Position numbers and translations under genes: made by a program | The notes under the pieces: model-generated | Told to the model about the DNA's origin: nothing | Database searches by the model: none | The model's input: the letters and a program-made list of their open reading frames with translations, nothing else | Sequence record: NC_014467.1 | Length of the DNA stretch: 64,000 nucleotides | Reading direction: 5' to 3' (one strand) | Source: Escherichia phage RB16 | Shown: positions 46,990-63,781 of the stretch, piece after piece | Numbering within the stretch: position 1 is the stretch's first letter | Layout of the letters: every line of letters begins with the position of its first letter

Positions 46990-49900
46990 ATGATTAAAGC
47001 GCCGTCAATTACCAGTTTGCGCGTTGATAAACTGGCTGCTAACTTCGTTTATTTGAAGTGGGATAGCGTCGGCATGGATTTTTACTATGTCGTGGAAATG
47101 GCTGAAACTCGCGGTGCGGGTGGTGCTGTGATTCCAGATGCGGATCTAACATGGTTCCAGTTGGGCTATGCGTATGTGAACGAATGGTTCTCTACTGCTG
47201 TGCAACCGGATAGCTTTTACAAATTCCGTATTAAGGTTACACATCAGGGATTTGAACCGTCTGATTGGGTTTACAGTGATGAACTCTGGACATTCACCCT
47301 TAACGCCTACGCATATTCAACCATGCGCGAATTTACACCAAGTGACGCATTTATAAACGAAAAATTCGCAAAGAACAATCAGAATTACGTGAATTTTAAT
47401 ACAGATGTGGTAATGGCAGCGTTGATGAAAGAAGACTTTGTGTTTTCTCCACTGTACACTGACGTATCCCAGATTAGTGATAAGATTCTTACACAGGAAA
47501 ACTATCACGAGATCCAGGATCACATTGAACACGTTTGTAATGACATTAACAGAACTTTTCTGGTAGCGTCAAACGGTTTGTTATATCTGTTTGAACGTTT
47601 TCAGAACATGGCTAAGGTATCCAATGACAAGGGGCAAACATGGCATTACTACAAGGCGTTTAACGACCGCGTAGGAAACCCCGTATCGCGTTCTGTCGCG
47701 TACCAAAGCACAAACACAACATATGTACTGGGTTACGACCGGATCTTCTACGGGCGCACCTCAACGGATATTCGCTGGTCTGCTGACGATGTGCGATTCT
47801 CTGCTGACGATATCATCTTTGCAAAACTGGGGAACCAGACAGGGTTAGATTTTGATGTTGACTCATACAATACCTTTGCAAAACTTCCTGGTGATGTATC
47901 GAAATATGCAGAAGCAATGGCATGTTCCGACGATTGGCTTTATGTTGCAGCGAAAAACATAGTTCGTCGTATTGCTCTGAAACAAACACCGATCGACACC
48001 GATCCGAGTTCTCCAACTTTTGGGGAAAAGATTTTCGACGAAACAAGCTATACCATTGTTCCAGGCAATGATAAAATTGTTGTTAAGAAAATGGATGTGA
48101 TGGACAGCAAACTTTACGTGCTCGTTACAGGCGAAGTTAAAGTTGCTCTGCAAGATCCAACAAAACCGGAAAACGTAGTTCCTTCTGTTGATTCTGGTGT
48201 GTATCAGTGGCAAGAAGACACTAAAACCTTTGTGCGCCTGTATGGGAACACTGAGGAAGAACGTTTCTTCATTGAACATGAATACACCAATATGTCAACA
48301 AACGGAAAAGAAATTTATATTTCTGTTGCCAACTACAAATACCCAGGAACTTTGCCAGATCCTGAACTGCTGATAACTAATCCTGAATTGGTTGCTGCTG
48401 TTAAGTATGATTTGCGTCCTGGCTATACTGCTAGTCTGTCTATCAACTTTGCTACTATTCGAGCAAATATTGATGATCCGACCGTGTGGAAATTCGGCGC
48501 ACAGGAATACTACAACGAGGCAAATTATAGCTGGTTCTTCCGTGATTCTGTTCGTACATGGATCACGAATGATAACCGTCCGTTGGTTGTGTATCCGAAA
48601 ATTGTATATGAAATGGTAACTGATACCGCTGGACCTTCTTCTACGTTGCGCGTCAACAAAGAGGTGTGGGATCGTGGACATGTTACAATTTACATTAACA
48701 ACATTAAATTTACCGGATTTACCAAATACACTAACGGTGTGTTGTTGTATAAAAGTTCTGGTGAAATTATCGGGTTCTTTGAACTGAGTTACCGCGCTCG
48801 TGATAGCCTTACGATTTTCTGGAAACCAGATAACACATTACTGATTGCGGATCTTATTCAGCAGGAAAGGGAACAACCTTATGTACCGGATTTGTCGCCC
48901 GGTTTGATTGATCCTGATTTAAGCCATATGATTACTCGCTTTGCACCACAAAGCTATCTGGATCAGGAATATTTCGAGAAGTTTGGTGAATATTATTTGC
49001 AGTTCGTTTCGTTGGGTGAAAACACCTACTATAACAAATTGCTGAACCTTATCAGGAACAAATATCCACGCGAGAAGAACTGTGTTGAATATTTGTGGTC
49101 GGAAGTAAACCGACGCAATATCTATCTGGATAAAACGAAGCGTGATCAAGTTGTGCGATTCTTTGAATCCCGTGCGAGTGATTTTTACTCCACGAAAGGT
49201 ATCGAGGCAAGTTATAAATTCCTGTTCAAACTGCTGTACAACGAAGACGTATCCGTAGAAATCGAGAGTTCAAACACTCTGGAATATGATATACTGGTTT
49301 CTTCGACTAACATCAGTCAGGACATTGTAGGGCGCACGATTTATACACCAACAGCAAGAGCAAACGTGACATATATCGAACGTGATTATGAAGACGGGCA
49401 ATTGCGATGGTCTATGACTCTGCATAACGTGATCGGTAACTTCCTTGAAGGACAGGTTGTTAAGTCAGAAAAGACTAATTTCACGGGTAGTATTCTGCGT
49501 GGTGTTCGTGGTAAGCAAATGGCGAACAACTCGATCGACTATTTCAACCGTGGGCGTTCATACTACGTGATGAAAATCCGTTCAAACCTTCCGGCTTCTC
49601 GTTATAAAGATGACGTGTTGCGGTTTGTGCATCCGGTAGGTTTTGGCTTTATCGGGATCACTATGCTGACGGTGTTCATTAACTCCGGTTTGTCGATGAC
49701 CCATAGTGAAACAATCATTGATATCCTCCGAAACTATCGCTTTGATAGCGGATATCCTAAGTATTGGCCCGATCGTGTTGCACGTCTTGACGGTAACGGA
49801 AACCAGACATTTGACCTTGTAACAGGTGAAGCATTATATGAACCACACCCTAAAGCGGGGCAACCGTTCGATGTTCCACCACAATATGACATTGATGAAC

Positions 49901-50073
49901 AACCGTTAAACGGTGTTTTGCCGTCTGCGCGTCGATTCGATCAAAGTCCTCTGTTCGATAGTTCAGCGGTTAAATACTCTCAGTTCCGTAACTTAGTGGA
50001 AAAACGATTGAAAGACGATGCGGGTAATCCTCGTGATCCGAATCCACCGACTCAGAGAAAGGTAGGAAAATAA
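46990..50073 (+). CDS. 7: baseplate wedge protein gp7
   Basis: 1027 aa (T4 gp7 1032 aa), synteny; ATG at 46990 with GGAGA SD. Confidence 0.9.
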   Translation: MIKAPSITSLRVDKLAANFVYLKWDSVGMDFYYVVEMAETRGAGGAVIPDADLTWFQLGYAYVNEWFSTAVQPDSFYKFRIKVTHQGFEPSDWVYSDELWTFTLNAYAYSTMREFTPSDAFINEKFAKNNQNYVNFNTDVVMAALMKEDFVFSPLYTDVSQISDKILTQENYHEIQDHIEHVCNDINRTFLVASNGLLYLFERFQNMAKVSNDKGQTWHYYKAFNDRVGNPVSRSVAYQSTNTTYVLGYDRIFYGRTSTDIRWSADDVRFSADDIIFAKLGNQTGLDFDVDSYNTFAKLPGDVSKYAEAMACSDDWLYVAAKNIVRRIALKQTPIDTDPSSPTFGEKIFDETSYTIVPGNDKIVVKKMDVMDSKLYVLVTGEVKVALQDPTKPENVVPSVDSGVYQWQEDTKTFVRLYGNTEEERFFIEHEYTNMSTNGKEIYISVANYKYPGTLPDPELLITNPELVAAVKYDLRPGYTASLSINFATIRANIDDPTVWKFGAQEYYNEANYSWFFRDSVRTWITNDNRPLVVYPKIVYEMVTDTAGPSSTLRVNKEVWDRGHVTIYINNIKFTGFTKYTNGVLLYKSSGEIIGFFELSYRARDSLTIFWKPDNTLLIADLIQQEREQPYVPDLSPGLIDPDLSHMITRFAPQSYLDQEYFEKFGEYYLQFVSLGENTYYNKLLNLIRNKYPREKNCVEYLWSEVNRRNIYLDKTKRDQVVRFFESRASDFYSTKGIEASYKFLFKLLYNEDVSVEIESSNTLEYDILVSSTNISQDIVGRTIYTPTARANVTYIERDYEDGQLRWSMTLHNVIGNFLEGQVVKSEKTNFTGSILRGVRGKQMANNSIDYFNRGRSYYVMKIRSNLPASRYKDDVLRFVHPVGFGFIGITMLTVFINSGLSMTHSETIIDILRNYRFDSGYPKYWPDRVARLDGNGNQTFDLVTGEALYEPHPKAGQPFDVPPQYDIDEQPLNGVLPSARRFDQSPLFDSSAVKYSQFRNLVEKRLKDDAGNPRDPNPPTQRKVGK

Positions 50074-51065
50074 TGGCTCAACAAAACATCTACCGTGCGG
50101 TTGTAACAGGAAAATTCCGCACGGAAAACATGATGAACTTTCGTGATATGATCGGGGATGACCCCGATCACAACTCGATTTATATGTCAATAGGGAGAAC
50201 TGAACAATGGGCTGATAACGAATCAGATCCTGAATTCGCTCCCCCGTATCCAAACGATGATACAGATGGTATTGTTGATATGTGGACGCATATGATCGGG
50301 GCGACAAAAGTTCCTGGCGAAATGATTGATGCAATCGTTCCGCGTAAAGATTGGGGCGACACTCGCTATCCAAACCCTAAAATATTCTATGTGAATGATA
50401 TCGTGGTTGTCAACTCCGCACCTTACAACCGTACTGACTACGGGAAAGGATGGATGATTTACCGCGTTGTAGACGTTCCTGATATTGGTTCTTGTTCTAT
50501 TTCCAGTATCACAGGTAAAGTCGAATGTGTGCGCATTGGTGGTATCTGGACACCGACCCATGAATCTGTTGAACCTCCACGCGGAGAAGCAAACGGAATT
50601 GATATGGGCGACGGGTACAAGTGGGAATATCTTTATACGATCCCGCCTGATGTCGTTATCAACCGATGCACAAACGAACATATCGTTGTTCCGTTCCCTG
50701 ATGAACTGGAAGAAGATCCGGTACGCTGGGGTTATGACAACGTGATCAAATGGTATCCAGATATGTATGATCTGGTGTTCCGTATGAAAGTTCATTCAAT
50801 GCGATTCCGTGCGTATATGGATTCTCTATTTTTCCCACAAGCCTCGCTACCTGGCAACCGTGGATTCCGTCAAATCAGCGTGATTGTTAACCCGCTGTTG
50901 AAAAAGGCGCAACCAACAGACCCAGAAGTGAAAGCAACCGGACAATTCTATACAAAGGATCAATTCGAACTGGATTCTGGACAGATGATCTATATGGAAA
51001 ACAGACAACCGATTATTCGATCCCCAGATCAGACCGAAGAAGTCAGTATTATTTTCGAATTCTAA
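50073..51065 (+). CDS. 8: baseplate wedge protein gp8
   Basis: 330 aa; start overlaps gp7 stop (TAATG); T4 synteny. Confidence 0.85.
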   Translation: MAQQNIYRAVVTGKFRTENMMNFRDMIGDDPDHNSIYMSIGRTEQWADNESDPEFAPPYPNDDTDGIVDMWTHMIGATKVPGEMIDAIVPRKDWGDTRYPNPKIFYVNDIVVVNSAPYNRTDYGKGWMIYRVVDVPDIGSCSISSITGKVECVRIGGIWTPTHESVEPPRGEANGIDMGDGYKWEYLYTIPPDVVINRCTNEHIVVPFPDELEEDPVRWGYDNVIKWYPDMYDLVFRMKVHSMRFRAYMDSLFFPQASLPGNRGFRQISVIVNPLLKKAQPTDPEVKATGQFYTKDQFELDSGQMIYMENRQPIIRSPDQTEEVSIIFEF

Positions 51066-51075
51066 GGAAACCATA

Positions 51076-51939
51076 ATGGCATATCAAACAGGTAAAAAAT
51101 TAATTGACGTGGGGCAGATCGGCAACCCGTCAACTGGTGACCCGCTGTATGACGGCGGTGTTAAACTTAACGAAATCATCACCAACGTGTATAATGCGTT
51201 CGGTGATGTGCGTTTGCTGACTGCAAATGATGGTGTTGGTACAATGCTGCTTCATGCAACTGGATATTTCCAGAAGTTGCCAAGAACGTATTATTCAGCA
51301 AACCCGATCGAACTGGGTTCATTGCATGATATGGATACAGCAACAGGGCCAATTACGGTTGTTCTTCCGTCTGGTAAGGCTGGCGAAGGGTGCTATTTCA
51401 TAAATAGTAACGGTAGTATTTCTGTTGATCGTCCTGTTGTATTTCGTCCTCAAGTTGGCGATAACATCAAAGGGGTTCAGGATCAGCTTTATATCACTTC
51501 TCCTTACACCCAGATTAAATTATGGTGTGTGAAGAAAGAAGGTTCAGTAACCACATGGGATTATTCAGTCGAATCTATGTTCGGATCTAAAACAATGCCC
51601 GTGGATACTACCAAACTAATTTTGAAAGCATCACCGACCGCAATTCCTTTATTCGGTTACAGTGAATTCAGCGGGGCTAAGTTGCTCGTATATGCTGAAA
51701 ATATGACAGGTACAGTCAACAAAATGGCTGAACTTCTCCTGTCTGTGGATCGTATCGCAAGGGGCGTATATTCTACGGAATATGCTGTACTGAAAAATAG
51801 CGATGATGACATGTATTCACTTACTTTCACTGTCGGTGCTGGTGACATTGTATATGCAAACGTCCAATCGGTACTCGAAGATCGAATTAAGTTCTCGATT
51901 AAAGCGGTTGACACCATTAAATCAGGGATCGCAGCATGA
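51076..51939 (+). CDS. 9: baseplate wedge / long tail fibre attachment protein gp9
   Basis: 287 aa; T4 synteny. Confidence 0.85.
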   Translation: MAYQTGKKLIDVGQIGNPSTGDPLYDGGVKLNEIITNVYNAFGDVRLLTANDGVGTMLLHATGYFQKLPRTYYSANPIELGSLHDMDTATGPITVVLPSGKAGEGCYFINSNGSISVDRPVVFRPQVGDNIKGVQDQLYITSPYTQIKLWCVKKEGSVTTWDYSVESMFGSKTMPVDTTKLILKASPTAIPLFGYSEFSGAKLLVYAENMTGTVNKMAELLLSVDRIARGVYSTEYAVLKNSDDDMYSLTFTVGAGDIVYANVQSVLEDRIKFSIKAVDTIKSGIAA

Positions 51940-53753
51940 AACAAGAAATTATTATTGGTAACGTGGTTGATGATGGCGCTGGCGATTACTTACGCCGTGG
52001 TGGTCAGAAAACAAACGCTAACTTTACCGAACTATACGAAAAGCTGGGTGATGGGGAGATCCCACACCCAGCGGGTGCATGGAAAACACATTCAGCACCG
52101 ACTCTGAACCCGATTTTCGGTGATTCATGGGCGCTGAATACCAGCAACAACCGTATTACTGTAAACCTCCCTAAAGGCGGCGTAGGCGATTATAACAAGG
52201 TTATTCGTCTGCGTGACGTATGGAGTAAATGGGCTGTAAACAACGTCCGTATTGTTCCTGCAACTGGTGATACCATCAAAGGATCACCAACTTACAAAGA
52301 ACTGTACAAAGATTTCATGGATGTTGAGTTAGTTTATTGTGCGCCTGGTCGTTGGGAATATGTCGAAAACAAACAGGTTGACAAAATCACAACTTCCGAT
52401 CTGGCTACTGTAGCAAAAGAAACATATATTGCTACACAAGGACAGACAGATTTCCCGAATGTGTTTGGCCCTGGTAACTCGTACAACGTCCGTGCTCTGG
52501 AAGTTTACTATCGTGGTAACTTGCTGTACATCGACGACAAAAACGGATTTGTTGAAGCAAACAGCGATTATGGTTCACCTGGTACAAACCCTGGAGAATT
52601 GATTGACCTTGATGGTACTAACATACGCCTTAAACGTCCGTGTAACGCTGGAGACACGCTTCAATTCGTAACCTATATGGATGGTATAGCGACATGGCGA
52701 TCGACGTATGAGGCGCATACTATGCGCGTATACAACACGGGTGATACTGAACTGGTAAGCGTACCTGGTGAAATCTGGGTTGGCAACCTTGCAACCAAAA
52801 AAGAATTTACCACTGCTGAATTCGGGATCAGTTCTCGTGTATTGATTAATCCGAACTCTTTCGAACTGCTGTTGAACGGTCGCCAACTTGTTAAAGCAGG
52901 TGACGCGGATCTTCCTACATTCGTGTGTGAAGGGGCAGAAGGTTATGATGAAGATAGCTGTTTAGCTAACTCCGGTGCGTGGGTTCCTTCTGGACAGGAC
53001 TACAGTTTGATCTTTGTTGATTCCATTGTAACAGGTATCAAATTCAGTCAACCTCTTGAAAGTCGCGATGTTGTTACGATCCGTTGGTTCAATAACGATA
53101 TCGGAACTGTAATGGAATGGGAAGGTGTTGGCGGTATTAAAGAGCATACCGATAAAATCTATCTGAACAACGAAGAAGAGTTAACCCTAGTTGGACGGAT
53201 TGAATATACCGACTATAACAACCCGTCGCAGAAAACGATGCGTAAAATTACGGAACCTTTCAGCGGTCGATTGCTGGATCTGCAAGCGTTTTTTGATGTG
53301 ATTCATCCGATCGGGACGATCTACGAAAACGCGCATAACGACGCAAACCCAGGCGAATACATGGGCTTCGGTATCTGGAAACGGTACGCAGAAGGTCAAT
53401 TTATCGCTGGTTGGACAACTGATGCAGCAGATAGCGATTTTGGTTTAAACAACAACGATTTGGATGGTTCTGGACAGCCTACACACACAGCAGGTGGTTC
53501 TGGTGGTGAACGTGGTTATGAAATTCATCCGATCAACGTTCCACAAATTGAATCAACCGATAAAGTTCTGATTAAGGACGACAACGGGATCATTATCATT
53601 GGTGGCTGTCAGGTTGACCCAGATGCAACAGGGCCAGGATACACTAAATACCGTGAGGATGTATTGAAAGTAAATCAGGGTAACACTACCCCAGATAAAC
53701 TTAAAACGCTCCCTCCGTATATTACTGCACATCGCTGGATAAGGGTAGCATAA
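51936..53753 (+). CDS. 10: baseplate wedge protein gp10
   Basis: 605 aa; T4 synteny. Confidence 0.85.
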   Translation: MKQEIIIGNVVDDGAGDYLRRGGQKTNANFTELYEKLGDGEIPHPAGAWKTHSAPTLNPIFGDSWALNTSNNRITVNLPKGGVGDYNKVIRLRDVWSKWAVNNVRIVPATGDTIKGSPTYKELYKDFMDVELVYCAPGRWEYVENKQVDKITTSDLATVAKETYIATQGQTDFPNVFGPGNSYNVRALEVYYRGNLLYIDDKNGFVEANSDYGSPGTNPGELIDLDGTNIRLKRPCNAGDTLQFVTYMDGIATWRSTYEAHTMRVYNTGDTELVSVPGEIWVGNLATKKEFTTAEFGISSRVLINPNSFELLLNGRQLVKAGDADLPTFVCEGAEGYDEDSCLANSGAWVPSGQDYSLIFVDSIVTGIKFSQPLESRDVVTIRWFNNDIGTVMEWEGVGGIKEHTDKIYLNNEEELTLVGRIEYTDYNNPSQKTMRKITEPFSGRLLDLQAFFDVIHPIGTIYENAHNDANPGEYMGFGIWKRYAEGQFIAGWTTDAADSDFGLNNNDLDGSGQPTHTAGGSGGERGYEIHPINVPQIESTDKVLIKDDNGIIIIGGCQVDPDATGPGYTKYREDVLKVNQGNTTPDKLKTLPPYITAHRWIRVA

Positions 53754-54415
53754 TGACACAATTTATTTCAAAGACAAGGGAGGGGGCGAAAGTCCCTTCC
53801 CGTGAAGCAGACTTTTTGCAATATGAAATGGGTACTAAAGACCCTCTTATCGGTGGTAAACGTACTATCGGTGGTGCAAACGTCGATCAGCTTCGTAAAG
53901 GGGTAGATTATCCCAACGTGCAATCAGCAATCGATGACCTGTATACTCTGTCTCAACAGATCCCGATCAACGGGGTTATCATGATGACAGAAGACAGTCC
54001 TCCGACCGCTGTTCAGCAGGTAGAGACTATAACTTTTGATGGTACTGTACAAAACACAGATCCAGACCAGACAAAAGCAACAATTCATGTTTATGGATTC
54101 CCGTTCGTGTTCGATAACACAACGAACGCATCAACCGTATGCGAAACAGTCTACAACAAGTTTACTGAATTTGTCAATGACGAAAAATATTTCGATCTGG
54201 TAACTCGCAAGGGCTTGAACGGTGAAATTCTGGAAGTTCGGTTTATTGATTGTGTTCCGCATCCGGTAACAAATACTACTGAAAACGGAATATCTATGGT
54301 AGGAACAATCGATGTACAGGCACGATCTGGTTACGGTACGTGGTCGAAACTGGGTGAGGTGGATCTTGCTGTAACTCCGGCAGTTCCAATTTTCTACTTT
54401 AAACGTATTGCGTAA
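53753..54415 (+). CDS. 11: baseplate wedge / short tail fibre attachment protein gp11
   Basis: 220 aa; T4 synteny. Confidence 0.85.
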   Translation: MTQFISKTREGAKVPSREADFLQYEMGTKDPLIGGKRTIGGANVDQLRKGVDYPNVQSAIDDLYTLSQQIPINGVIMMTEDSPPTAVQQVETITFDGTVQNTDPDQTKATIHVYGFPFVFDNTTNASTVCETVYNKFTEFVNDEKYFDLVTRKGLNGEILEVRFIDCVPHPVTNTTENGISMVGTIDVQARSGYGTWSKLGEVDLAVTPAVPIFYFKRIA

Positions 54416-54424
54416 GGATAACCA

Positions 54425-55816
54425 ATGAGTAACAACACAATTAACCACGTAAGCGATGCGTCCGTTTACGTGACTTTTGATCCGGCAGGTACGCAATGGC
54501 CCTCGACTTTCGTCAACGTACAGCAAGCATTAGCCTCTATAGGCCCGTGGGCGCGTACTGATGTTGGTTTGCCTAACGCGGCTCCTGGTATGCGTGGTAT
54601 TGCTGCTATTGCTACCGAGGCGATGATTGACGCAGGGACAGACAACGAAACGATCGTTACTCCTGCATTGCTGGCATATCGTTTACAAAATCCTCATGCG
54701 TCACAAACCGTTTGGGGATATACCAAATACGCAACTGATGCGGAAGCGGTTGATGTCGCAAACGATCTGGTTTCATTAACTCCGCGTTCGATCAATGTGG
54801 TTTTCAATACCAGACACGCATCAGAAACCGTGTGGGGTTCTTCTAAACTGTCAACGACAGCACAGGCAACAGCGGGTACTGATGATACAACCTCAATGAC
54901 ACCATTGAAGGTAAAACAAGCAATCTCTGCTCTGGTTCCGGTACAATCCAACGCAACAGAAAGCGCGTTCGGTTTGGTTCAGTTGGCTACGGTTTCAGAA
55001 GTCCGCGCGGGTACTATTCGCGACGGTTTCGCAATTTCACCGTATACGTTTATTCGTCTGAATGCAACAGAAAGCGATCTGGGTATTGTTCGCCTAGCAA
55101 GTCAGGCAGAAGTAAACGCAGGAACTGATGATACCAAAGCCGTTACCCCGTTAAAACTGGCTAACCTTAAAGGCTCCGGTGGTTCTTTCGGTTTGGTTAA
55201 ATTATCAACAGAAGTAAACGCAGGGCTGGCTAACACTGCTCTTTCTGCGGGTGCTAACGTAGTACCGAGCAACCGTGACAGCGCTATCACTGGTGGTGCA
55301 TTGTATCAGGGTTCAGTTGCTGCTGCTAATAAATACCAGACACATAGCGATATCGAAGCATCGTTACCGATTGGCTGTATGATGATGGCTGCATTTAACT
55401 CCGATTACGGAAACCTGTGTATTGCCAACGGTCGCGGGATGTATACATACGAATACCCAGAACTGTTTGCACGTATAGGCTATACGTATGGCGGTAGTGG
55501 TAACATCTTTAATCTTCCTGATATGCGCGGCGTAGTTGCTCGCGGATTTGATGCGGGACGTGGTTTAGACCCAGGTCGTGGATTTGGTACATACCAGCAT
55601 CACGAAGTACAGTCTCATGAGCATCCATTGCAGATGATCTATCAGTCTGGTGGTAACTTACCATCATGGCAGTGTGTTTATGAACTGCGTACTGCTGAGA
55701 AGAATGACCAGAAATTATACTGGCCTGATCCATCACTCAGTAAAGCAATGGCTGTAGGCGGTAACGAAACGCGAATGAAGAACCTTGCGGTCAACTATGT
55801 AATTCGAGTACGATAA
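54425..55816 (+). CDS. 12: short tail fibre protein gp12
   Basis: N-terminus MSNNTINHVSDASVYVTFDP... parallels T4 gp12; repeated TDDT..MTPLK motifs. Confidence 0.9.
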   Translation: MSNNTINHVSDASVYVTFDPAGTQWPSTFVNVQQALASIGPWARTDVGLPNAAPGMRGIAAIATEAMIDAGTDNETIVTPALLAYRLQNPHASQTVWGYTKYATDAEAVDVANDLVSLTPRSINVVFNTRHASETVWGSSKLSTTAQATAGTDDTTSMTPLKVKQAISALVPVQSNATESAFGLVQLATVSEVRAGTIRDGFAISPYTFIRLNATESDLGIVRLASQAEVNAGTDDTKAVTPLKLANLKGSGGSFGLVKLSTEVNAGLANTALSAGANVVPSNRDSAITGGALYQGSVAAANKYQTHSDIEASLPIGCMMMAAFNSDYGNLCIANGRGMYTYEYPELFARIGYTYGGSGNIFNLPDMRGVVARGFDAGRGLDPGRGFGTYQHHEVQSHEHPLQMIYQSGGNLPSWQCVYELRTAEKNDQKLYWPDPSLSKAMAVGGNETRMKNLAVNYVIRVR

Positions 55817-55828
55817 AGGGGTTAATCC

Positions 55829-58117
55829 ATGATTTCAAAACTTAACCCGTTACCAAAGATCCCGTTTGTTGATGGTGTCCCTTCGGACACCACACAAACC
55901 CCGATCAACTGGATAATTAACGGCGAAACTCTCGATGGTGCTAAAACCAAAGTCACTAACGAGGGTTCTTTAAACAGGTGCGGTGTTCTGGTACAAAAGA
56001 ACGCGGTGCAATTAGAAACCAACACCATTACACAGACTGCAAAAATCAACGAAGTTATCGATCAGGTTAACCTCATTAGTGAAAACCTCGCGGCTATTTC
56101 TGATGAAAGCGTGATTGACAAACTGGATCAGGTTGTTGCTGATGTAGAAGTGTTGAAAGTTGATATGACTGCGGTTCAAGGTTCTACTGCAAGCAATACC
56201 CTGAAAATCCAGGATCTCGATAAAGAGATCGGGACGTGGGACGCTTCAACAGATCCTAAACACCGTACCATTCGAAAAGATATTATTTTCCTGAAAGGGG
56301 AAATGGGTGCGTACCCTGGGTTTAACGAAAACGGCGACGTAGATCCGACATCAACGGGTTCCGGCATGAAATACAAAATCATGACGAACGCGCAAGCGAT
56401 TTCGATTCATGAAGGACGTATTACGCGCCTTGAAGATGATTGGGCTAACTCAGACGTAGGTCATTTAACTGATGAAGTAACCGATCTGCGTAACGAAATG
56501 GGGCCAAAACATTTAGCGACGTTTGAATCTGTATATGTTCGTCTAAACATTATCGGTACTGAGATCACTGGTATCAATTCCGAACTAACCAGCATCAACC
56601 AATATATCGGTCGTACTGGCACGGGTGGAACTGGTAGTATTTCTGCGCGTATGACTACAGCAGAATCGAATATCGCAACCCTGCAAACACAGATGAATGA
56701 TTCTGCTACTGGTGTATTACCTCGCGTAATTTCTTTGGAAAATGCTGTCGGTAACTCTCAGATCCCTGGTAGTATTCGTTACGACATCAGCGCAATCAAA
56801 CGTGACATCGGTGATATCAACATGATCGTCGGTGAATCAAGCGATGATGGTCTTCGTGGGGAAATGGCTCAGGTTATGACCGATATCGGTACTGATTCAC
56901 AGCCTACGAGCATCAAAGGCCGTTTGCTGAACGTTGAGAACACCCAACGTGACGATCACCAGAAACTGATTGACGTTGAATCTGTTGTTGGTAATACTTC
57001 AAGTGGACTCGTTGCGGCTAATATCGCGATGGGTAAAGCTGTTTACGGTGATGCAACGAGTTCTGATCCATTCCTGAAAGACGGTATTCAGAAAACAGCG
57101 CGTGACAGTAAAGCGGCTATCGGTGTAAACACAACCGGATCGGAAACAGGGATCTATAAACTGATTTCAGATTTGACTGCTCGTGTTGCTGCACTTGAAA
57201 GCGGTACTGGTGGCGAACTTGAACAACGTGTTTCTGATTTGGAAACCAATAAAGCATCGCATCAGGACGTTGCAAACGCATTGGTTCCGTATATTACCGA
57301 AGCGGAAGCAGATGTTAAGTACGAACCGAAGAAAATTCCGTTATCGTTTACGCAAAACCTTGTTAGGCGTGGCGATTATATCGAAGGTGATGACATTTCT
57401 TTCATGGTTACGGTAACAGGTGGTAAACTGCCTTATGTCTACCAGTGGAAGAAAGGAACCGCTGATGTAGGTACTAACGCATCGAGCATTCTGATCCAAA
57501 GCATTACCTCTGCCGACGCTGGCGTGTATAAAGTTGTTGTTACCGATGCAGACAACACCGTAATTACTTCTGACGAAGTGACGGTTGCTGTTTATCCGGT
57601 TCCTCAGTTTGATACTAACCTGGCTGACAAATCGGTGGTTGACGGTGATCCTCTGACTCTGGAAGTTGTATACAGCGGTGGTAAACCTCCGTACACTTAC
57701 GAATGGTTCAAAGATAACTCTGTTATCTCTGGGGAAACATCAGCAACATTTACCAAATCTGCTGTTACAAGCGCTGATGCTGGTGAATACTATGTTTCTG
57801 TAACTGACGCAATGAACAACCAAAACGATTCAGTGAAAGCAACCGTGACTGTAACACCTCGTCCGGCTCTTGCATTCACTACGGATCTGAGTGCTACTAA
57901 ATCATACAGCACAGGTGCTAACATGGATCTTGCTGTTGTCGTGACTGGTGGTAAAACACCATATACGTATAAATGGTTTAAAGACACTGCGGAAATTTCC
58001 GGTCAGACAGGCGCAAGCCTTACCACTGTAGCAGAAGATGGGGTGTATAAAGTCGAAGTGACGGATGCACTAACGACTAAAATAACATCAACTGAATGCA
58101 CGGTAACTGTGGCATAA
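55829..58117 (+). CDS. wac: fibritin (whisker/neck fibre, wac) with three C-terminal Ig-like repeats
   Basis: N-terminal LPKIPFVDGVP and coiled-coil segments as in T4 fibritin; C-terminus has three about 90-aa repeats. Confidence 0.85.
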   Translation: MISKLNPLPKIPFVDGVPSDTTQTPINWIINGETLDGAKTKVTNEGSLNRCGVLVQKNAVQLETNTITQTAKINEVIDQVNLISENLAAISDESVIDKLDQVVADVEVLKVDMTAVQGSTASNTLKIQDLDKEIGTWDASTDPKHRTIRKDIIFLKGEMGAYPGFNENGDVDPTSTGSGMKYKIMTNAQAISIHEGRITRLEDDWANSDVGHLTDEVTDLRNEMGPKHLATFESVYVRLNIIGTEITGINSELTSINQYIGRTGTGGTGSISARMTTAESNIATLQTQMNDSATGVLPRVISLENAVGNSQIPGSIRYDISAIKRDIGDINMIVGESSDDGLRGEMAQVMTDIGTDSQPTSIKGRLLNVENTQRDDHQKLIDVESVVGNTSSGLVAANIAMGKAVYGDATSSDPFLKDGIQKTARDSKAAIGVNTTGSETGIYKLISDLTARVAALESGTGGELEQRVSDLETNKASHQDVANALVPYITEAEADVKYEPKKIPLSFTQNLVRRGDYIEGDDISFMVTVTGGKLPYVYQWKKGTADVGTNASSILIQSITSADAGVYKVVVTDADNTVITSDEVTVAVYPVPQFDTNLADKSVVDGDPLTLEVVYSGGKPPYTYEWFKDNSVISGETSATFTKSAVTSADAGEYYVSVTDAMNNQNDSVKATVTVTPRPALAFTTDLSATKSYSTGANMDLAVVVTGGKTPYTYKWFKDTAEISGQTGASLTTVAEDGVYKVEVTDALTTKITSTECTVTVA

Positions 58118-58123
58118 TTTAAC

Positions 58124-58143
58124 AAGGGGCGCAAGCCCCTTTT
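58124..58143 (+). terminator. intrinsic terminator after wac
   Basis: AGGGGC-GCAA-GCCCCT + TTT. Confidence 0.6.
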
Positions 58144-58152
58144 GAGGATCAT

Positions 58153-59076
58153 ATGATTACGAACAATCCTGAACAATTGAAGGATGAAATTCTTCGTCGT
58201 CTGGGCGCACCAATCATCAAAATCGAAATCACACAAGACCAGATTTACGATTGCATTCAACGCGCACTGGATCTGTATGCGGAATATCACTACAACGGAA
58301 CAAACAAAAGTTACATTATCCTTACGTTAGGCGAAGACAACCCGCGAAACGTATTTGATTTGAGTAAAGAACATATTTTCGCGGTTACAAAAGTATTGCG
58401 TACAAATATCGGTTCATTGGTTTCTATGGACGGTACAGCGGTTTATCCGTGGTTTACTGATTTCCTGATGGGGCTTACTGGTGGTTCTCTGGGCGGTCGC
58501 TGTGCATCAAGCGTGTACGGTATGAATGCATATGGCGCGGATCTGGGGTATTTTACACAGATGATGTCATATCAACGTTCAATGCAAGAGTTGCTGGCTC
58601 CATTACCTGATTACTGGTACAACGACGACACTGGTCAGTTTTGTGTATGGGGTAAAGTCAACAACGGTGATATTATTGTCATTGAAGTGATGGTAAGATC
58701 CTTTGTCGATGTTCCTAGTGCCGTAGGAAGCGTTGCAGGATACGCTACAGCGGGTTCTAACGCAGTAGAAGACCAATCCATAGCCGACATCTACGATAAC
58801 CCGTATAACGCGGTTGTGGGCGGTGTACGAGCGGGACAGGGTACAACTGTTACTGGTGGAACCTCTGCATATAACAACCGTTGGGTAAAAGACTACTCAA
58901 CCGCGCTGGTAAAAGAAATCAACGGGCAAATTCTGGCTAAGTTTCAGGGTATGCAATTGCCTGGTGGTGTTGCTCCAGATGGAACACGACTGATTCAGGA
59001 AGCGGAAACCAAATTACAAGGATTGCGCGACGAACTGATTTCTATGTCTGACGCAGTTCCTATTATTATGGTGTAG
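58153..59076 (+). CDS. 13: neck protein gp13
   Basis: 307 aa; T4 synteny. Confidence 0.85.
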   Translation: MITNNPEQLKDEILRRLGAPIIKIEITQDQIYDCIQRALDLYAEYHYNGTNKSYIILTLGEDNPRNVFDLSKEHIFAVTKVLRTNIGSLVSMDGTAVYPWFTDFLMGLTGGSLGGRCASSVYGMNAYGADLGYFTQMMSYQRSMQELLAPLPDYWYNDDTGQFCVWGKVNNGDIIVIEVMVRSFVDVPSAVGSVAGYATAGSNAVEDQSIADIYDNPYNAVVGGVRAGQGTTVTGGTSAYNNRWVKDYSTALVKEINGQILAKFQGMQLPGGVAPDGTRLIQEAETKLQGLRDELISMSDAVPIIMV

Positions 59077-59084
59077 GGGGAATA

Positions 59085-59831
59085 ATGCAAAACTGGGATG
59101 AAAGTTTATTCGCTCAGTTGTCAACGGGGGAGGGAGTCGATCGCAACTTAAAGGATCAAGTCACTAACCCGTATGTAAACTGGTACAAATATAACCCAAC
59201 ACAACAGCTACATGATTCACTTACAGCAGAATCAATCCAGATGAAATCACCTGATATGTATTATGTCAGACGTGAATTTGTGAATATAGATAAAATTCTG
59301 GGTGAAGACCGAGAGTCTAAATTCACGAAATCGTGGAAGATCGCTGCATATATTGAATCATATGCTAACTATGAAGGACAGCGGGACTTCTTTAGAAAAT
59401 TCGGGTTGAGTTCTAACGACGAAATGACGCTGGTACTAAATCCGCGTTTATTTGCACATCAAACTGATGGTGGTATTCCGGTGCTGGGGGATTTGGTTTA
59501 TTTCCCAATGGATAACAGCTTGTTTGAAATTACATGGGTGGAAGCAGATCCGTTCTATCAGTTCGGTGATCGTCCTCAACGTAAAATCAACCTGGCTAAA
59601 TTCATCTACACGGGCGAAGAATTGGCTCCTGAATTGCAGCGAAACGAAGGAATCCATATCGAACCTGATGCAGAACTGGATCTTGAACCTATTCGAAATC
59701 TTGACGGGCTGGCAGATATTAACATTGAACAGTACGAAGAAGACAAAGAATTTGAAAGAGAAGGTGACGAGTTTATCGAATCTTTTGATGTTGTCAACGG
59801 TCGCGGTTCTCCGTTTGCAAGTCTACCATAA
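59085..59831 (+). CDS. 14: neck protein gp14
   Basis: 248 aa; T4 synteny. Confidence 0.85.
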   Translation: MQNWDESLFAQLSTGEGVDRNLKDQVTNPYVNWYKYNPTQQLHDSLTAESIQMKSPDMYYVRREFVNIDKILGEDRESKFTKSWKIAAYIESYANYEGQRDFFRKFGLSSNDEMTLVLNPRLFAHQTDGGIPVLGDLVYFPMDNSLFEITWVEADPFYQFGDRPQRKINLAKFIYTGEELAPELQRNEGIHIEPDAELDLEPIRNLDGLADINIEQYEEDKEFEREGDEFIESFDVVNGRGSPFASLP

Positions 59832-59835
59832 ATAA
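59828..59835 (+). promoter_or_regulatory. late-promoter-like box CATAAATAA
   Basis: ATAAATAA overlapping gp14 stop, upstream of hairpin pair. Confidence 0.35.
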
Positions 59836-59842
59836 GTTAAAT

Positions 59843-59880
59843 GGGTATAGGCGGAAGTCTATACCCTCTTCAAAGAGGGG
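59843..59880 (+). promoter_or_regulatory. two alternative hairpins, the second sequestering the SD of the downstream T5orf172-like gene
   Basis: GGGTATAG-GCGGAAGT-CTATACCC (59843-59866) and CCCTCTT-CAA-AGAGGG (59864-59880); SD AGAGGGG lies in the 3' arm. Confidence 0.5.
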
Positions 59881-59888
59881 TTTATGAT

Positions 59889-60614
59889 ATGGTTGCAAAA
59901 ATCTCTATAGAACAACGAGAACATCAATTAAAAGAACGTTGTGCGGAATTAGAACTATCTTTTGATGGATGGGTAGACCAATCAGCGATCACAAAATATT
60001 CAAAGTTTTATGTTGTTTGCAGTAAAGGACATAGAACAGAAAAACAGATCAAACCATTTGTCAACAAAAGTCGTCCAAACGGATGTTATTTGTGTTCTCC
60101 TAAGATGAAAATATCAAAGGAAAACAGAATCGAGGAAATCAAAACTCTTGCAGATTCAATTGGATATACATTCATAGATTTCGTTGGGGTGTATAAAGAT
60201 GCTCACACAAAAATATCAATGGTTTGCGATAAAGGCCATAATTGGGATGTAAGTATAGTTGCTTTTCTCAATCAAGGTCATCGCTGTAAAAAATGCGCAA
60301 CGTCTGGGTTCAATACGAACAAACCAGCATACGTATACGTACAATCACTATCTGGAAAATTTCTGAAATTTGGGATAACCAACAGAACACCAAAGAAAAG
60401 AATGTGTGCGCAATCAAATAAATCCGTTTATAAACACGAACTGGTTTATCAAAAATTATTCGATAAAGGTATTGATGCAATGAGTATTGAACAGAAGATC
60501 AAACAATCTCTTGTTTGTGGCGTAGTTGATAAATCAGATATGATGGATGGATATACAGAAACAACAGATATATCCAATTACGATAAACTGTTGAATATTA
60601 TAGAAGGAGTATAA
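59889..60614 (+). CDS. T5orf172/GIY-YIG-like domain protein with duplicated zinc-finger modules (free-standing homing-endonuclease-like)
   Basis: two CxKGH...CxxC modules then YVYVQSLSGKFLKFGITNRTPKKR (T5orf172-type GxxKxGxT...R); inserted between genes 14 and 15. Confidence 0.5.
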   Translation: MVAKISIEQREHQLKERCAELELSFDGWVDQSAITKYSKFYVVCSKGHRTEKQIKPFVNKSRPNGCYLCSPKMKISKENRIEEIKTLADSIGYTFIDFVGVYKDAHTKISMVCDKGHNWDVSIVAFLNQGHRCKKCATSGFNTNKPAYVYVQSLSGKFLKFGITNRTPKKRMCAQSNKSVYKHELVYQKLFDKGIDAMSIEQKIKQSLVCGVVDKSDMMDGYTETTDISNYDKLLNIIEGV

Positions 60615-60616
60615 AA

Positions 60617-61434
60617 TTGTTTGGATACTGGTATAATAGTTCGCTGCGTAACTACATTGTTCTTATGGGACAATTGTTTAACCATGTTCAGGTTAAAAGA
60701 GTACGCGGCGATCAAGAAAAATTTATTAAGGTTCCAATTACCTACGCATCGAAAGAGAAATTTCTTGCTTCCATGAATAAACTCAACTATGCGTATAGTC
60801 AGGAAAACGTAGCAAAGACGGAAACCATTTTACCGCGAATGAACCTATCACTGGTCGATCTGCAATATAACGCAATTCGTAAAACCAGCATAGCGGTCAA
60901 CCAAAAAATGACGCAATTGCAATCACCCCGCAAGACGATCACACAGTTTAACCCTGTGCCTTATCGTTTAATTTTTGAACTGGGTGTGTATACGCGATAT
61001 GAAGACGACATGTTTCAGATCGCAGAACAGATTTTACCGTATTTTCAACCACATTTCAACTGCAAGATTACCGAACTGCATAAGAACGAAATCACAGTTG
61101 ACCGAGACATCAAAATCAGTCTCCAGTCGGTTGCACCAGATACAACGTTTGAGGGCGAAGCATCACAGCGCCGACATGTTGAATGGTCTTTCATGTTCGA
61201 ATTGCAGGGTTATCTGTACCCGCCTGTTACTGACGTTAAGGGCGAAATCAGAACAGTATACACGGATTTCTTTGCCAATATGAACCCATTGGATAAAGAT
61301 AACTTTGAATCCGTTGATAGTCAAGCCGATCCGGTAGATCTGCCTTTGCAGGATTACACGGGCGAAGAATATATTCAGACGTATTCGCACGATAAGCCGA
61401 TCCCGTCTGGTGATGAACCTCCTAAGCCGAGGGA

Positions 61435-61438
<4 letters not shown>
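60617..61438 (+). CDS. 15: tail sheath stabiliser / connector protein gp15
   Basis: MFGYWYNSSLRNY... parallels T4 gp15 MFGYFYNSSFRRY...; apparent TTG start at 60617 after AGGAGT. Confidence 0.9.

Positions 61439-63781
<2,343 letters not shown>

Follow-up and report, generated by a model that had tools for sequence, protein, structure and literature searches.

A probable wac gene of Escherichia phage RB16 encodes a neck fibritin with three predicted Ig-like domains in place of the foldon

Introduction

T4 fibritin (gpwac; 2BSG, 3J2O, and 1AA0-type foldon constructs), encoded between genes 12 and 13, ends in a foldon of 27-30 aa, a beta-hairpin propeller (...DGEWVxLSTFL) that serves as trimerisation nucleus, and its C-terminal end touches the long tail fibre near the knee, aids fibre attachment, and keeps the fibres “up” (PMC3797505, PMC9569957). 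The foldon defines the T-even subtype, not fibritins generally; folding through this small domain is reported to be restricted to the T4 and JS98 fibritins (PMC3797505). According to the review of Letarov and Krisch (2013; PMC3797505), which cites Letarov et al. (2005), the fibritin of phage RB43 carries three Ig-like domains, and fibritins, that of RB43 included, are trimeric. The same review reports that folding and trimerisation of RB43 fibritin depend on the enlarged C-terminal domain of the protein and that KP15 fibritin has one Ig-like domain, and it had already proposed an accessory adhesin role for the Ig domains of fibritins. The Ig-tipped architecture of the RB43-type whisker is therefore already known, having been published for RB43 in 2005. 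The present analysis of phage RB16 goes modestly beyond that review in describing a series of relatives with zero to five modules of shuffled types and purifying selection on the modules (dN/dS ~0.1).

Results

Identity and position of the gene

The window, that is, the whole stretch of 64,000 nucleotides of record NC_014467.1 that was analysed, contains an open reading frame (Table 1) that is very probably the wac gene of an RB43-type (Pseudotevenvirus) phage of the T4 family, with three Ig-like domains in the place of the foldon. Its identity as a fibritin follows from homology to T4 Wac, a match of the protein to PHROG 1056 “fibritin neck whisker” (E 2.6e-184), gp12-wac-gp13 synteny, and 99.7% identity to RB43 Wac. 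The gene order gp10-gp11-gp12-wac-gp13-gp14 in the window is that of T4 and RB43, and wac lies where a fibritin gene is expected, between gene 12 (short tail fibre, with a Collar domain in gp12) and gene 13 (neck). A ribosome binding site, AAAGGGG, is located 8 nt upstream of the ATG.

At the DNA level, the gene was 99.2-99.7% identical to the wac genes of RB43, CfP1, Miller, Xman, and IME-CF2, and the full-length gene was found in 55 independent phage records and many metagenome contigs. RB16 Wac and RB43 Wac (YP_239189 / AAP04365) share gene position, three Ig modules, and 760 of 762 residues, the differences being the two substitutions I241T and R513G. The window as a whole is only ~96% identical to RB43, CfP1, and Miller, and the endonuclease gene that it has between gene 14 and gene 15 is a different one.

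Table 1. Features of the wac locus of phage RB16 (positions in the window)
Feature	Position	Strand	Basis
wac CDS (fibritin, neck whisker); ATG start, 762 aa + stop	55829..58117	+	ORF list
Putative N-terminal neck-attachment domain, aa 1-60	55829..56008	+	Conservation, alignment to T4 fibritin
Segmented alpha-helical coiled-coil shaft, aa 61-486	56009..57286	+	phmmer, AlphaFold2, heptads, Pfam
Junction motif PYITEAEADVKY, aa 487-498	57287..57322	+	At the place of the T4 foldon
Predicted Ig-like domain 1, type “B”, aa 503-590	57335..57598	+	Repeat HMM envelope 503-590, Pfam, AlphaFold2
Predicted Ig-like domain 2, type “C”, aa 591-679	57599..57865	+	Pfam, AlphaFold2
Predicted Ig-like domain 3, type “A”, aa 680-762, C-terminus ...CTVTVA	57866..58114	+	Repeat identity, AlphaFold2
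Putative stem-loop AAGGGGC-GCAA-GCCCCTT plus TT	58124..58143	+	Between wac stop and gene 13 RBS/start (58153)

N-terminal domain and shaft

The N-terminal domain was the best-conserved part of the protein (67-100% identical among 40 homologues) and aligned to residues 6-64 of T4 fibritin as well as to the N-terminal fibritin fragments 1OX3 and 2IBL (E 2e-7); by analogy, we infer that it binds the neck. T4 fibritin aligned with aa 8-407 in BLASTP (33% identity, E 2e-51) and, as 2BSG/3J2O, with aa 9-456 in phmmer (E 8.8e-47). An initial annotation of this DNA, made from sequence alone, had the N-terminal 480 aa tracking T4 fibritin; the homology is real, and the extent was slightly generous, since the alignment stops by aa 456. 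Within the shaft, aa 61-456 could be aligned to T4 and aa 457-486 constitute an additional coiled-coil segment absent from T4; aa 457-505 as a whole showed no T4 likeness. The shaft comprised ~19 helices separated by loops in the AlphaFold2 model, with hydrophobic residues clustered at heptad a/d positions (e.g., 5/5 against 0/11 elsewhere), and the Pfam family Fibritin_C matched aa 373-489 (E 5e-23). The two fibritins are thus alike in N-terminus and coiled coil over ~400-450 aa, whereas beyond these T4 fibritin has the foldon and RB16 Wac has the extra coiled coil, the junction motif, and an Ig-like region of ~260 aa.

Ig-like domains

Domain and structure predictions support three tandem I-set Ig-like domains at aa ~503-762. 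The whole protein scored 73.4 for Pfam Ig_3 (cutoff, 30; E 2.2e-20, three stretches), 49.5 for I-set (cutoff, 23.7), and 50.4 for Ig_2 (cutoff, 27). When the domains were searched alone, domain 1 matched I-set (26.5 bits; cutoff, 23.7) and domain 2 matched Ig_3, Ig_2, and I-set (38.4, 33.7, and 31.2 bits, each over its cutoff); domain 3 stayed under the Pfam cutoff (Ig_3, 19.7 bits) and shared 48-49% identity with domains 1 and 2. The AlphaFold2 models, which are monomer predictions, had a mean pLDDT of 87.5, with values of >90 in the Ig parts and three beta-sandwiches: strands were placed at aa 506-589 in domain 1 (pLDDT 84-95) and at aa 593-676 in domain 2 (pLDDT >95), and domain 3 also formed a beta-sandwich (pLDDT 93-97). 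The best PDB match of the Ig string in Foldseek was titin I67-I69 (E 2e-17), RB49 Hoc (3SHS) giving E 2e-15, and the probability was 1.00 for titin, NCAM, DCC, and RB49 Hoc. The domain prediction that the initial annotation had proposed as a check therefore yielded an Ig fold, and its view of the repeats as Ig-like agrees with Pfam, AlphaFold2, and Foldseek alike. Of the two families it had suggested, I-set and Big, the first was borne out, and no Big-family Pfam match was present in the protein.

The three repeats were 37-49% identical to each other in amino acid sequence. One motif occurs in them as GGKLPYVYQWKK from aa 531, GGKPPYTYEWFK from aa 617, and GGKTPYTYKWFK from aa 707, and a second motif follows as ADAGVYKVVVTDA at aa 562 and ADAGEYYVSVTDA at aa 649; the third copy reads EDGVYKVEVTDA at aa 736. 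The consensus given earlier for these three repeats holds except for its ADAG, from which the third copy deviates, and the repeat region measures ~260 aa rather than the ~280 aa first estimated. Short Pro-rich linkers (YPVPQF and TPRPALAF) join the domains. A DNA-level repeat search in wac returned only families of 14-23 nt at chance level. Because the repeats are undetectable in DNA, they are old, diverged modules, and a recent tandem duplication was ruled out by the same result together with the low amino acid identity.

Foldon and junction

At the point where T4 fibritin continues into its foldon, RB16 Wac has the junction motif, which, judged by sequence, may be a vestige of the first half of the foldon. 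The best local alignment with the foldon covered 8 residues at aa 488-495 (YITEAEAD versus YIPEAPRD in T4) and was not significant, since 70% of shuffles equalled or beat its score. The motif DGxW[VIL], representing the Trp beta-hairpin of the foldon, was absent in 120/120 homologues, the hairpin was not seen in the AlphaFold2 models, and the junction segment of 95 aa (aa 428-522), searched by sequence against the PDB at E<=10, gave zero matches and hence no solved relative. Retention of the foldon, left undecided in the initial annotation, is settled by the alignment, the PDB search, and the models: the T4 foldon is not retained. The Fibritin_C profile (T4 aa 373-482, foldon included) was matched end-to-end at aa 373-489, and a profile-level trace of the foldon region might persist in that match. 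Of 13 inspected homologues, most had a motif related to that of the junction, Y[IY]T[EK].E.D.K[YF].

Comparison with Hoc and other Ig-bearing proteins

In sequence comparisons with PDB entries, Hoc-like decoration proteins of Felixounavirus (Bas63 Hex-Dec, 9NCF, E 1.8e-40; Sf14 gp20, 9C2D, E 7.7e-29) and T5 pb10 (5LXK, E 6e-14) matched the Ig part far better than T4 and RB49 Hoc did (E 8e-3 and 7e-5, respectively). PHROG “Hoc-like” profiles matched aa 491-677, and all matches to Hoc and Hoc-like proteins were confined to the Ig region. Hoc and Hoc-like proteins (RB49 3SHS, T4 5VF3, 9NCF, 9C2D, and 5LXK) are, like the RB16 region, virion-exposed strings of I-set domains that vary in number among relatives. 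They have a dedicated capsid-binding domain, for which the ESRNG motif has been defined in Hoc (PMC10385173), whereas neither this domain nor the motif was present in RB16 Wac, in which the Ig string would sit on a trimeric neck fibre. On these sequence criteria, RB16 Wac is Hoc-like in its Ig string and yet is no Hoc. The likeness to the titin I-band (2RIK/2RJM, I67-I69), a eukaryotic muscle protein, extends to I-set topology and short linkers and is at the level of fold only (19% identity). PDB 9OCC chain A, labelled “Putative neck whiskers protein gp24,” was considered as a solved whisker analogue and rejected, because the accompanying paper shows it to be the tail tube protein of a siphophage, Sf11.

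Variation and origin of the Ig modules

Relatives in the wac slot carried 0, 1, 2, 3, 4, or 5 Ig modules, with the types shuffled. The fibritin of Slopekvirus (KP15/KP27/Miro) resembles RB16 Wac in N-terminus, shaft, junction motif, and type of Ig module (51% overall identity) and has a single module, of type “H,” where RB16 Wac has three. At the lower end of the series, P0050 is a complete Ig-less homologue of 493 aa with normal gp12-wac-gp13 synteny, in which the related junction motif lies 5 residues from the C-terminus. The Ig part was less conserved than the shaft, diverging faster, and both were under purifying selection (dN/dS of 0.10-0.12 for the Ig modules versus 0.06-0.10 for the shaft). 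The same type of Ig module was found in head-decoration and tail-tube proteins of >1000 phage records. Together, these observations support the Ig part of wac as accessory and exchangeable.

An HMM built from the repeats found nothing outside wac in a six-frame translation of the 64-kb window. An origin of the Ig modules from the phage's own hoc, by recent copying within the genome, found no support: with tblastn (E<=1e-8), the one full-genome Pseudotevenvirus record listed, leE, was matched at a single place, wac itself.

Discussion

By analogy with T4 and with the biochemistry of RB43, RB16 Wac would form a parallel trimer that is anchored by its N-terminus at the gp13/gp14 neck and makes the collar/whisker fibres. 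With T4 stoichiometry (12 trimers), each fibre tip would carry three Ig arms, so that some 108 Ig domains would surround the neck, and the arms would lengthen the fibre by up to ~12 nm. Tentatively, and at somewhat less than even probability, we suggest that the arms behave as do those of Hoc and other phage decoration proteins, that they would touch surfaces rich in carbohydrate, for example the host envelope or mucus, weakly and reversibly, and that they would thereby keep the virion near the host until the long tail fibres engage. Reversible contacts of this kind would leave the number and type of modules free to differ between phages.

A stronger form of this proposal, possible though doubtful, is that the tip of the whisker works as a tunable adhesin of the cassette type. 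Recombination between RB43-type phages would add, remove, and reorder Ig modules of at least a dozen types, with 0 to 5 in each chain, and the string would set which glycans of the host surface or of mucus are held by the neck fibres, making the whisker, next to the tail fibres, a second organelle that determines host or niche. Such a cassette would also imply that trimerisation proceeds via the junction motif Y(I/Y)T(E/K)xExDxK(Y/F) and not via the Ig domains, since the natural Ig-less form ends 5 residues past the motif. The RB43-type whisker is in any case a tidy example of Ig modules moving between head decoration, tail tube, and neck fibre proteins, and the zero-to-five series with shuffled order offers a natural set of variants for the function of virion-surface Ig domains in adsorption rate, mucus adherence, and tail-fibre retraction.

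Alternatively, the Ig arms might replace the foldon in gripping the long tail fibres, the role of T4 fibritin as an assembly aid and as a retraction device that senses the environment being kept through a different interface. The contact of the T4 C-terminal end with the long tail fibre (PMC3797505, PMC9569957) speaks for such docking, the conservation of N-terminus and shaft with T4 means that the fibre direction is probably the same, and purifying selection on the modules fits any specific partner. Docking nevertheless seems unlikely in view of the module series, in which 0 to 5 modules occur in shuffled order among phages with shafts up to 81-87% identical (56-58% in P0050 and P0041, relatives with 0 and 5 modules, respectively). 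Such changes alter fibre length by as much as ~20 nm and exchange the end domain, and a fixed docking site on the tail fibre would not easily accommodate them. The same Ig type is also found, in unrelated phages, on the capsid and the tail tube.

The Ig region could also be mainly structural, a C-terminal nucleus for folding or registration or a protease-resistant cap standing in for the foldon, with no ligand. Because the C-terminal domain is reported to be needed for folding and trimerisation of RB43 fibritin (PMC3797505), the region may be structural as well as, or instead of, adhesive, and the limitation of foldon-driven folding to T4 and JS98 agrees with this. A mainly structural role is nonetheless improbable, more so than docking: P0050 is complete without Ig domains, which are thus not obligatory in the lineage; in Hoc and titin, domains of this kind are monomeric beads, with no obvious trimer interface; and one module would be enough for capping, yet two to five are maintained. 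Finally, an artefactual joining of wac to an adjacent Hoc-like gene during sequencing or assembly, a reading prompted by the C-terminal “Hoc-like” PHROG match, can be dismissed given the independent records and metagenome contigs with the full-length gene, the lack of internal stops, the low dN/dS over the junction and Ig region, and the absence of the Hoc capsid-binding domain and its motif.

Flanking elements

Around the gene, a sigma-70/terminator scan of 55.5-58.4 kb gave hits at chance level, and no exact T4 late-promoter motif (TATAAATA) occurred on the + strand from 48 to 62 kb. The stem-loop downstream of wac, passed over by the terminator scan because it has 4 T only, is a putative element with a predicted RNA fold of -14 kcal/mol (z = -3.5 against shuffles).

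Architecture of RB16 Wac

The neck whisker protein fibritin (Wac) of RB16 consists of a fibritin N-terminus, a coiled-coil shaft, and three C-terminal Ig-like modules, without the foldon, the small C-terminal trimerization domain of T4 fibritin. The reading frame proposed for it proved sound, with an ATG start, 762 codons followed by TAA, and an AAAGGGG ribosome-binding site 5' of the ORF. Likeness to T4 Wac was found by BLASTP for aa 8-407 (33% identity; E, 2e-51) and by phmmer for aa 9-456, which paired with T4 aa 7-454 (E, 8.8e-47), and the protein matched PHROG 1056, “fibritin neck whisker” (E, 2.6e-184). Conservation among 40 homologues was highest in the first 60 residues, which also matched solved N-terminal fibritin fragments. 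The full-length AlphaFold2 monomer contained about nineteen loop-separated helices at aa 50-484, with strongly hydrophobic residues at heptad a/d positions within helices (e.g., 5/5 versus 0/11 elsewhere); this region is a segmented coiled coil, as in T4 fibritin. The low overall confidence of this model (mean pLDDT, 67) is expected for a single chain of a trimeric fiber. A small beta-hairpin was also modeled in the shaft with low confidence (strands aa 161-165 and 171-178; segment GAYPGFNENGDVDPTSTGSGMKY; pLDDT, ~58), and the surrounding aa 160-182 are conserved in the family, with many invariant residues.

The Ig-like repeats of the initial annotation were upheld by Pfam, structural modeling, and Foldseek. 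Copies of GGKxPYxYxW begin at aa 531, 617, and 707, and those of (A)D(A)GxYxVxVTDA begin at aa 562, 649, and 736, the third of the latter being EDGVYKVEVTDA. An HMM derived from these repeats placed the modules at aa 503-590, 591-677, and 680-762 and, across the window's six-frame translation, had no further match. Pfam reported Ig_3 (E, 2e-20; three stretches), Ig_2, and I-set in the whole protein, all above gathering scores; as single modules, 1 and 2 passed I-set, and 3 was subthreshold. The AlphaFold2 model of aa 440-762, built on a 17-sequence alignment (mean pLDDT, 87.5), showed three beta-sandwiches (aa 506-589, 593-676, and 682-761; block pLDDT mostly 91 to 98) joined by short Pro-rich linkers. 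Foldseek ranked the three-domain titin fragment I67-I69 first in the PDB (E, 2e-17) and also matched RB49 Hoc (3SHS; three Ig-like domains; E, 2e-15). Pairwise identity among the modules is 37 to 49%, and no repeat was detectable in wac at the DNA level; the modules are old and diverged.

Absence of a T4-type foldon

The initial annotation had left retention of the foldon undecided. The shaft alignable with T4 stops at aa ~456 and is followed by an extra helical segment, ELEQRVSDLETNKASHQDVANAL, a junction motif, PYITEAEADVKY (aa 487-498), and the first Ig strand, IPLSFTQNL. When the 30-aa foldon was aligned locally with the whole protein, its best placement fell at the topologically equivalent spot and paired YITEAEAD with YIPEAPRD. 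Shuffled foldons attained the score of this alignment (23) in 70% of cases when the whole protein was the target and in 11% when the target was only aa 456-520. The Trp-containing hairpin DGxW[VIL] occurred in none of 120 homologues, a PDB search with aa 428-522 gave no match at E ≤ 10, and neither AlphaFold2 model had a hairpin at the foldon position. Pfam Fibritin_C, which includes the foldon because it spans T4 aa 373-482, was matched end to end at aa 373-489 (E, 5e-23), a profile-level trace that is a caveat to the loss of the foldon. We conclude that RB16 Wac has not kept the T4-type foldon, of which no more than a remnant of the first, extended half survives, in agreement with the report that folding via a small foldon is confined to the fibritins of T4 and JS98 (PMC3797505).

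Module variation among relatives

A protein-collection search found 290 homologues, and the lengths of the best 120 stepped with Ig module number: 493 aa (no module), 571 to 587 aa (one), 663 to 679 aa (two), 759 to 770 aa (three), 851 to 853 aa (four), and 941 aa (five). The 0-, 4-, and 5-module forms were complete genes in the gp12-wac-gp13 slot on contigs of 31 to 154 kb. When modules were taken singly from 22 representative homologues and clustered at ~55% identity, at least 14 types emerged, with architectures including BCA (RB16), BCAD, BCDA, BEA, BEAD, BC, BE, AD, A, KLAFA, GD, G, and H; modules have therefore been gained, lost, and reordered. Relatives with shafts 83 to 87% identical to that of RB16 shared only 58 to 75% identity in module 1 and 46 to 76% in module 2. 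The uneven dS along wac (0.39 in the shaft versus 1.8 in module 1 against GuL6; 0.82 in the shaft versus 0.20 in module 3 against Lw1) indicates a mosaic history, and dN/dS was 0.10 to 0.12 in the Ig region and 0.06 to 0.10 in the shaft; the modules are kept by selection. The Ig-less form terminates in DYYTKVESDAKFQPKAV, 5 residues past the junction motif, suggesting that this motif, not the Ig string, completes the fiber.

Two single-Ig homologues of 571 aa (P0038 and P0043) retain only the type of RB16 module 3 and lack ~15 residues, or about two heptads, around ALESGTGGELEQRVSDLE relative to RB16 aa 455-472. These losses are consistent with deletions in which repeated LE heptads, and likewise Ig modules, recombined with one another.

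Related modules in other virion proteins and possible function

The nearest solved protein by sequence was Bas63 Hex-Dec (9NCF_S; E, 1.8e-40), which decorates the capsid, is Hoc-like, and has four Ig-like domains, followed by the Sf14 “tail protein” (9C2D_S; E, 7.7e-29) and the T5 decoration protein (5LXK; E, 6e-14); the sequence matches to Hoc of T4 and of RB49 were much weaker. The Hoc capsid-binding signature was absent from RB16 Wac. By tblastn, RB16-type modules were present in 1,075 phage records, in genes annotated as head decoration, tail tube/major tail, or “tail fibre.” Chain A of 9OCC, “Putative neck whiskers protein gp24,” is in fact the Shigella siphophage Sf11 tail tube protein, which carries an Ig-like domain at its C-terminus, and was rejected as a whisker. 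The same misleading label is carried by T5-like phage genes matching these modules.

By analogy with T4 and the cited biochemistry, Wac would form a parallel trimer with its N-terminus bound to the neck and three Ig arms at the end of each fiber. The T4 neck reportedly carries twelve fibritin trimers, a figure attributed to Fokine et al. in 2013. The arms may bind carbohydrate-rich surfaces weakly and reversibly, the likeliest though still tentative reading, in line with proposals for Hoc and phage Ig-like domains generally; Letarov and Krisch proposed such binding specifically for RB43 fibritin (PMC3797505). That modules vary freely in number and order is more in keeping with an accessory role in surface contact than with fixed docking. 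A less likely alternative is that the arms take over the foldon's grip on the long tail fiber. Still less probable is a mainly folding or stabilizing role: the enlarged C-terminal domain is described as necessary for folding (PMC3797505), which lends this role some support, but the natural Ig-less variant argues against it.

RB43 Wac differs from RB16 Wac at 2 of 762 positions, and the RB43 architecture was published in 2005 (Letarov et al., as cited in PMC3797505); the finding was therefore already known. Beyond PMC3797505, which discusses an adhesin-like role for RB43 fibritin, our additions are incremental: the 0- to 5-module series with shuffled types, the selection figures, and the explicit foldon negative.

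Gene context

Gene order around wac is the same as in T4 and RB43.

Features in and around RB16 wac
Feature	Position	Strand	Description
gp10-sized ORF	51936-53753		605 aa
gp11-sized ORF	53753-54415		220 aa
gp12	54425-55816		463 aa; phage tail Collar domain
wac	55829-58117	+	762 aa; between gp12 and gp13
Predicted shaft beta-hairpin	56309-56362		wac aa 161-178
Stem-loop	58124-58143	+	AAGGGGC-GCAA-GCCCCTT, then TT
gp13-corresponding ORF	58153-59076		
gp14-corresponding ORF	59085-59831		
257-aa ORF	59841-60614	+	between genes 14 and 15
gp15-corresponding ORF	60617-61438		

The wac DNA was 99.2 to 99.7% identical to that of Citrobacter phages Xman, CfP1, Miller, and IME-CF2 and Escherichia phage RB43. 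With ~96% DNA identity to RB43-group phages over 19 kb, this near identity places the phage in the RB43 group of Pseudotevenvirus. A stable GNRA stem-loop (folding energy, -14 kcal/mol; z = -3.5) lies within the 35 nt that separate the stop codon of wac from the start of gene 13 and may be a partial terminator or an mRNA-stabilizing hairpin; a consensus terminator scan did not call it, since its T run comprises just 4 T. The exact T4 late-promoter motif TATAAATA was absent from the + strand at 48000-62000 (14 kb of late structural genes), where late promoters may differ from the consensus of T4 or be located farther upstream.

The 257-aa ORF (GC, 34 to 36% versus ~44% around it) contains two Pfam CapR-homology (zinc-ribbon-like) stretches (E, 6.5e-18), and its relatives are annotated as “endonuclease” or “GIY-YIG nuclease family.” The gene 14-gene 15 junction appears to be a site for homing endonucleases that is filled differently in different phages. 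The ORF is 97 to 98% identical in Cronobacter phages leE, Cronuts, and JC03, Klebsiella phi1_146010, and E. coli phage Lw1, whose wac genes are only 80 to 87% identical to that of RB16, whereas RB43 has an unrelated 204-aa mobE at the junction, though its wac is 99.5% identical.
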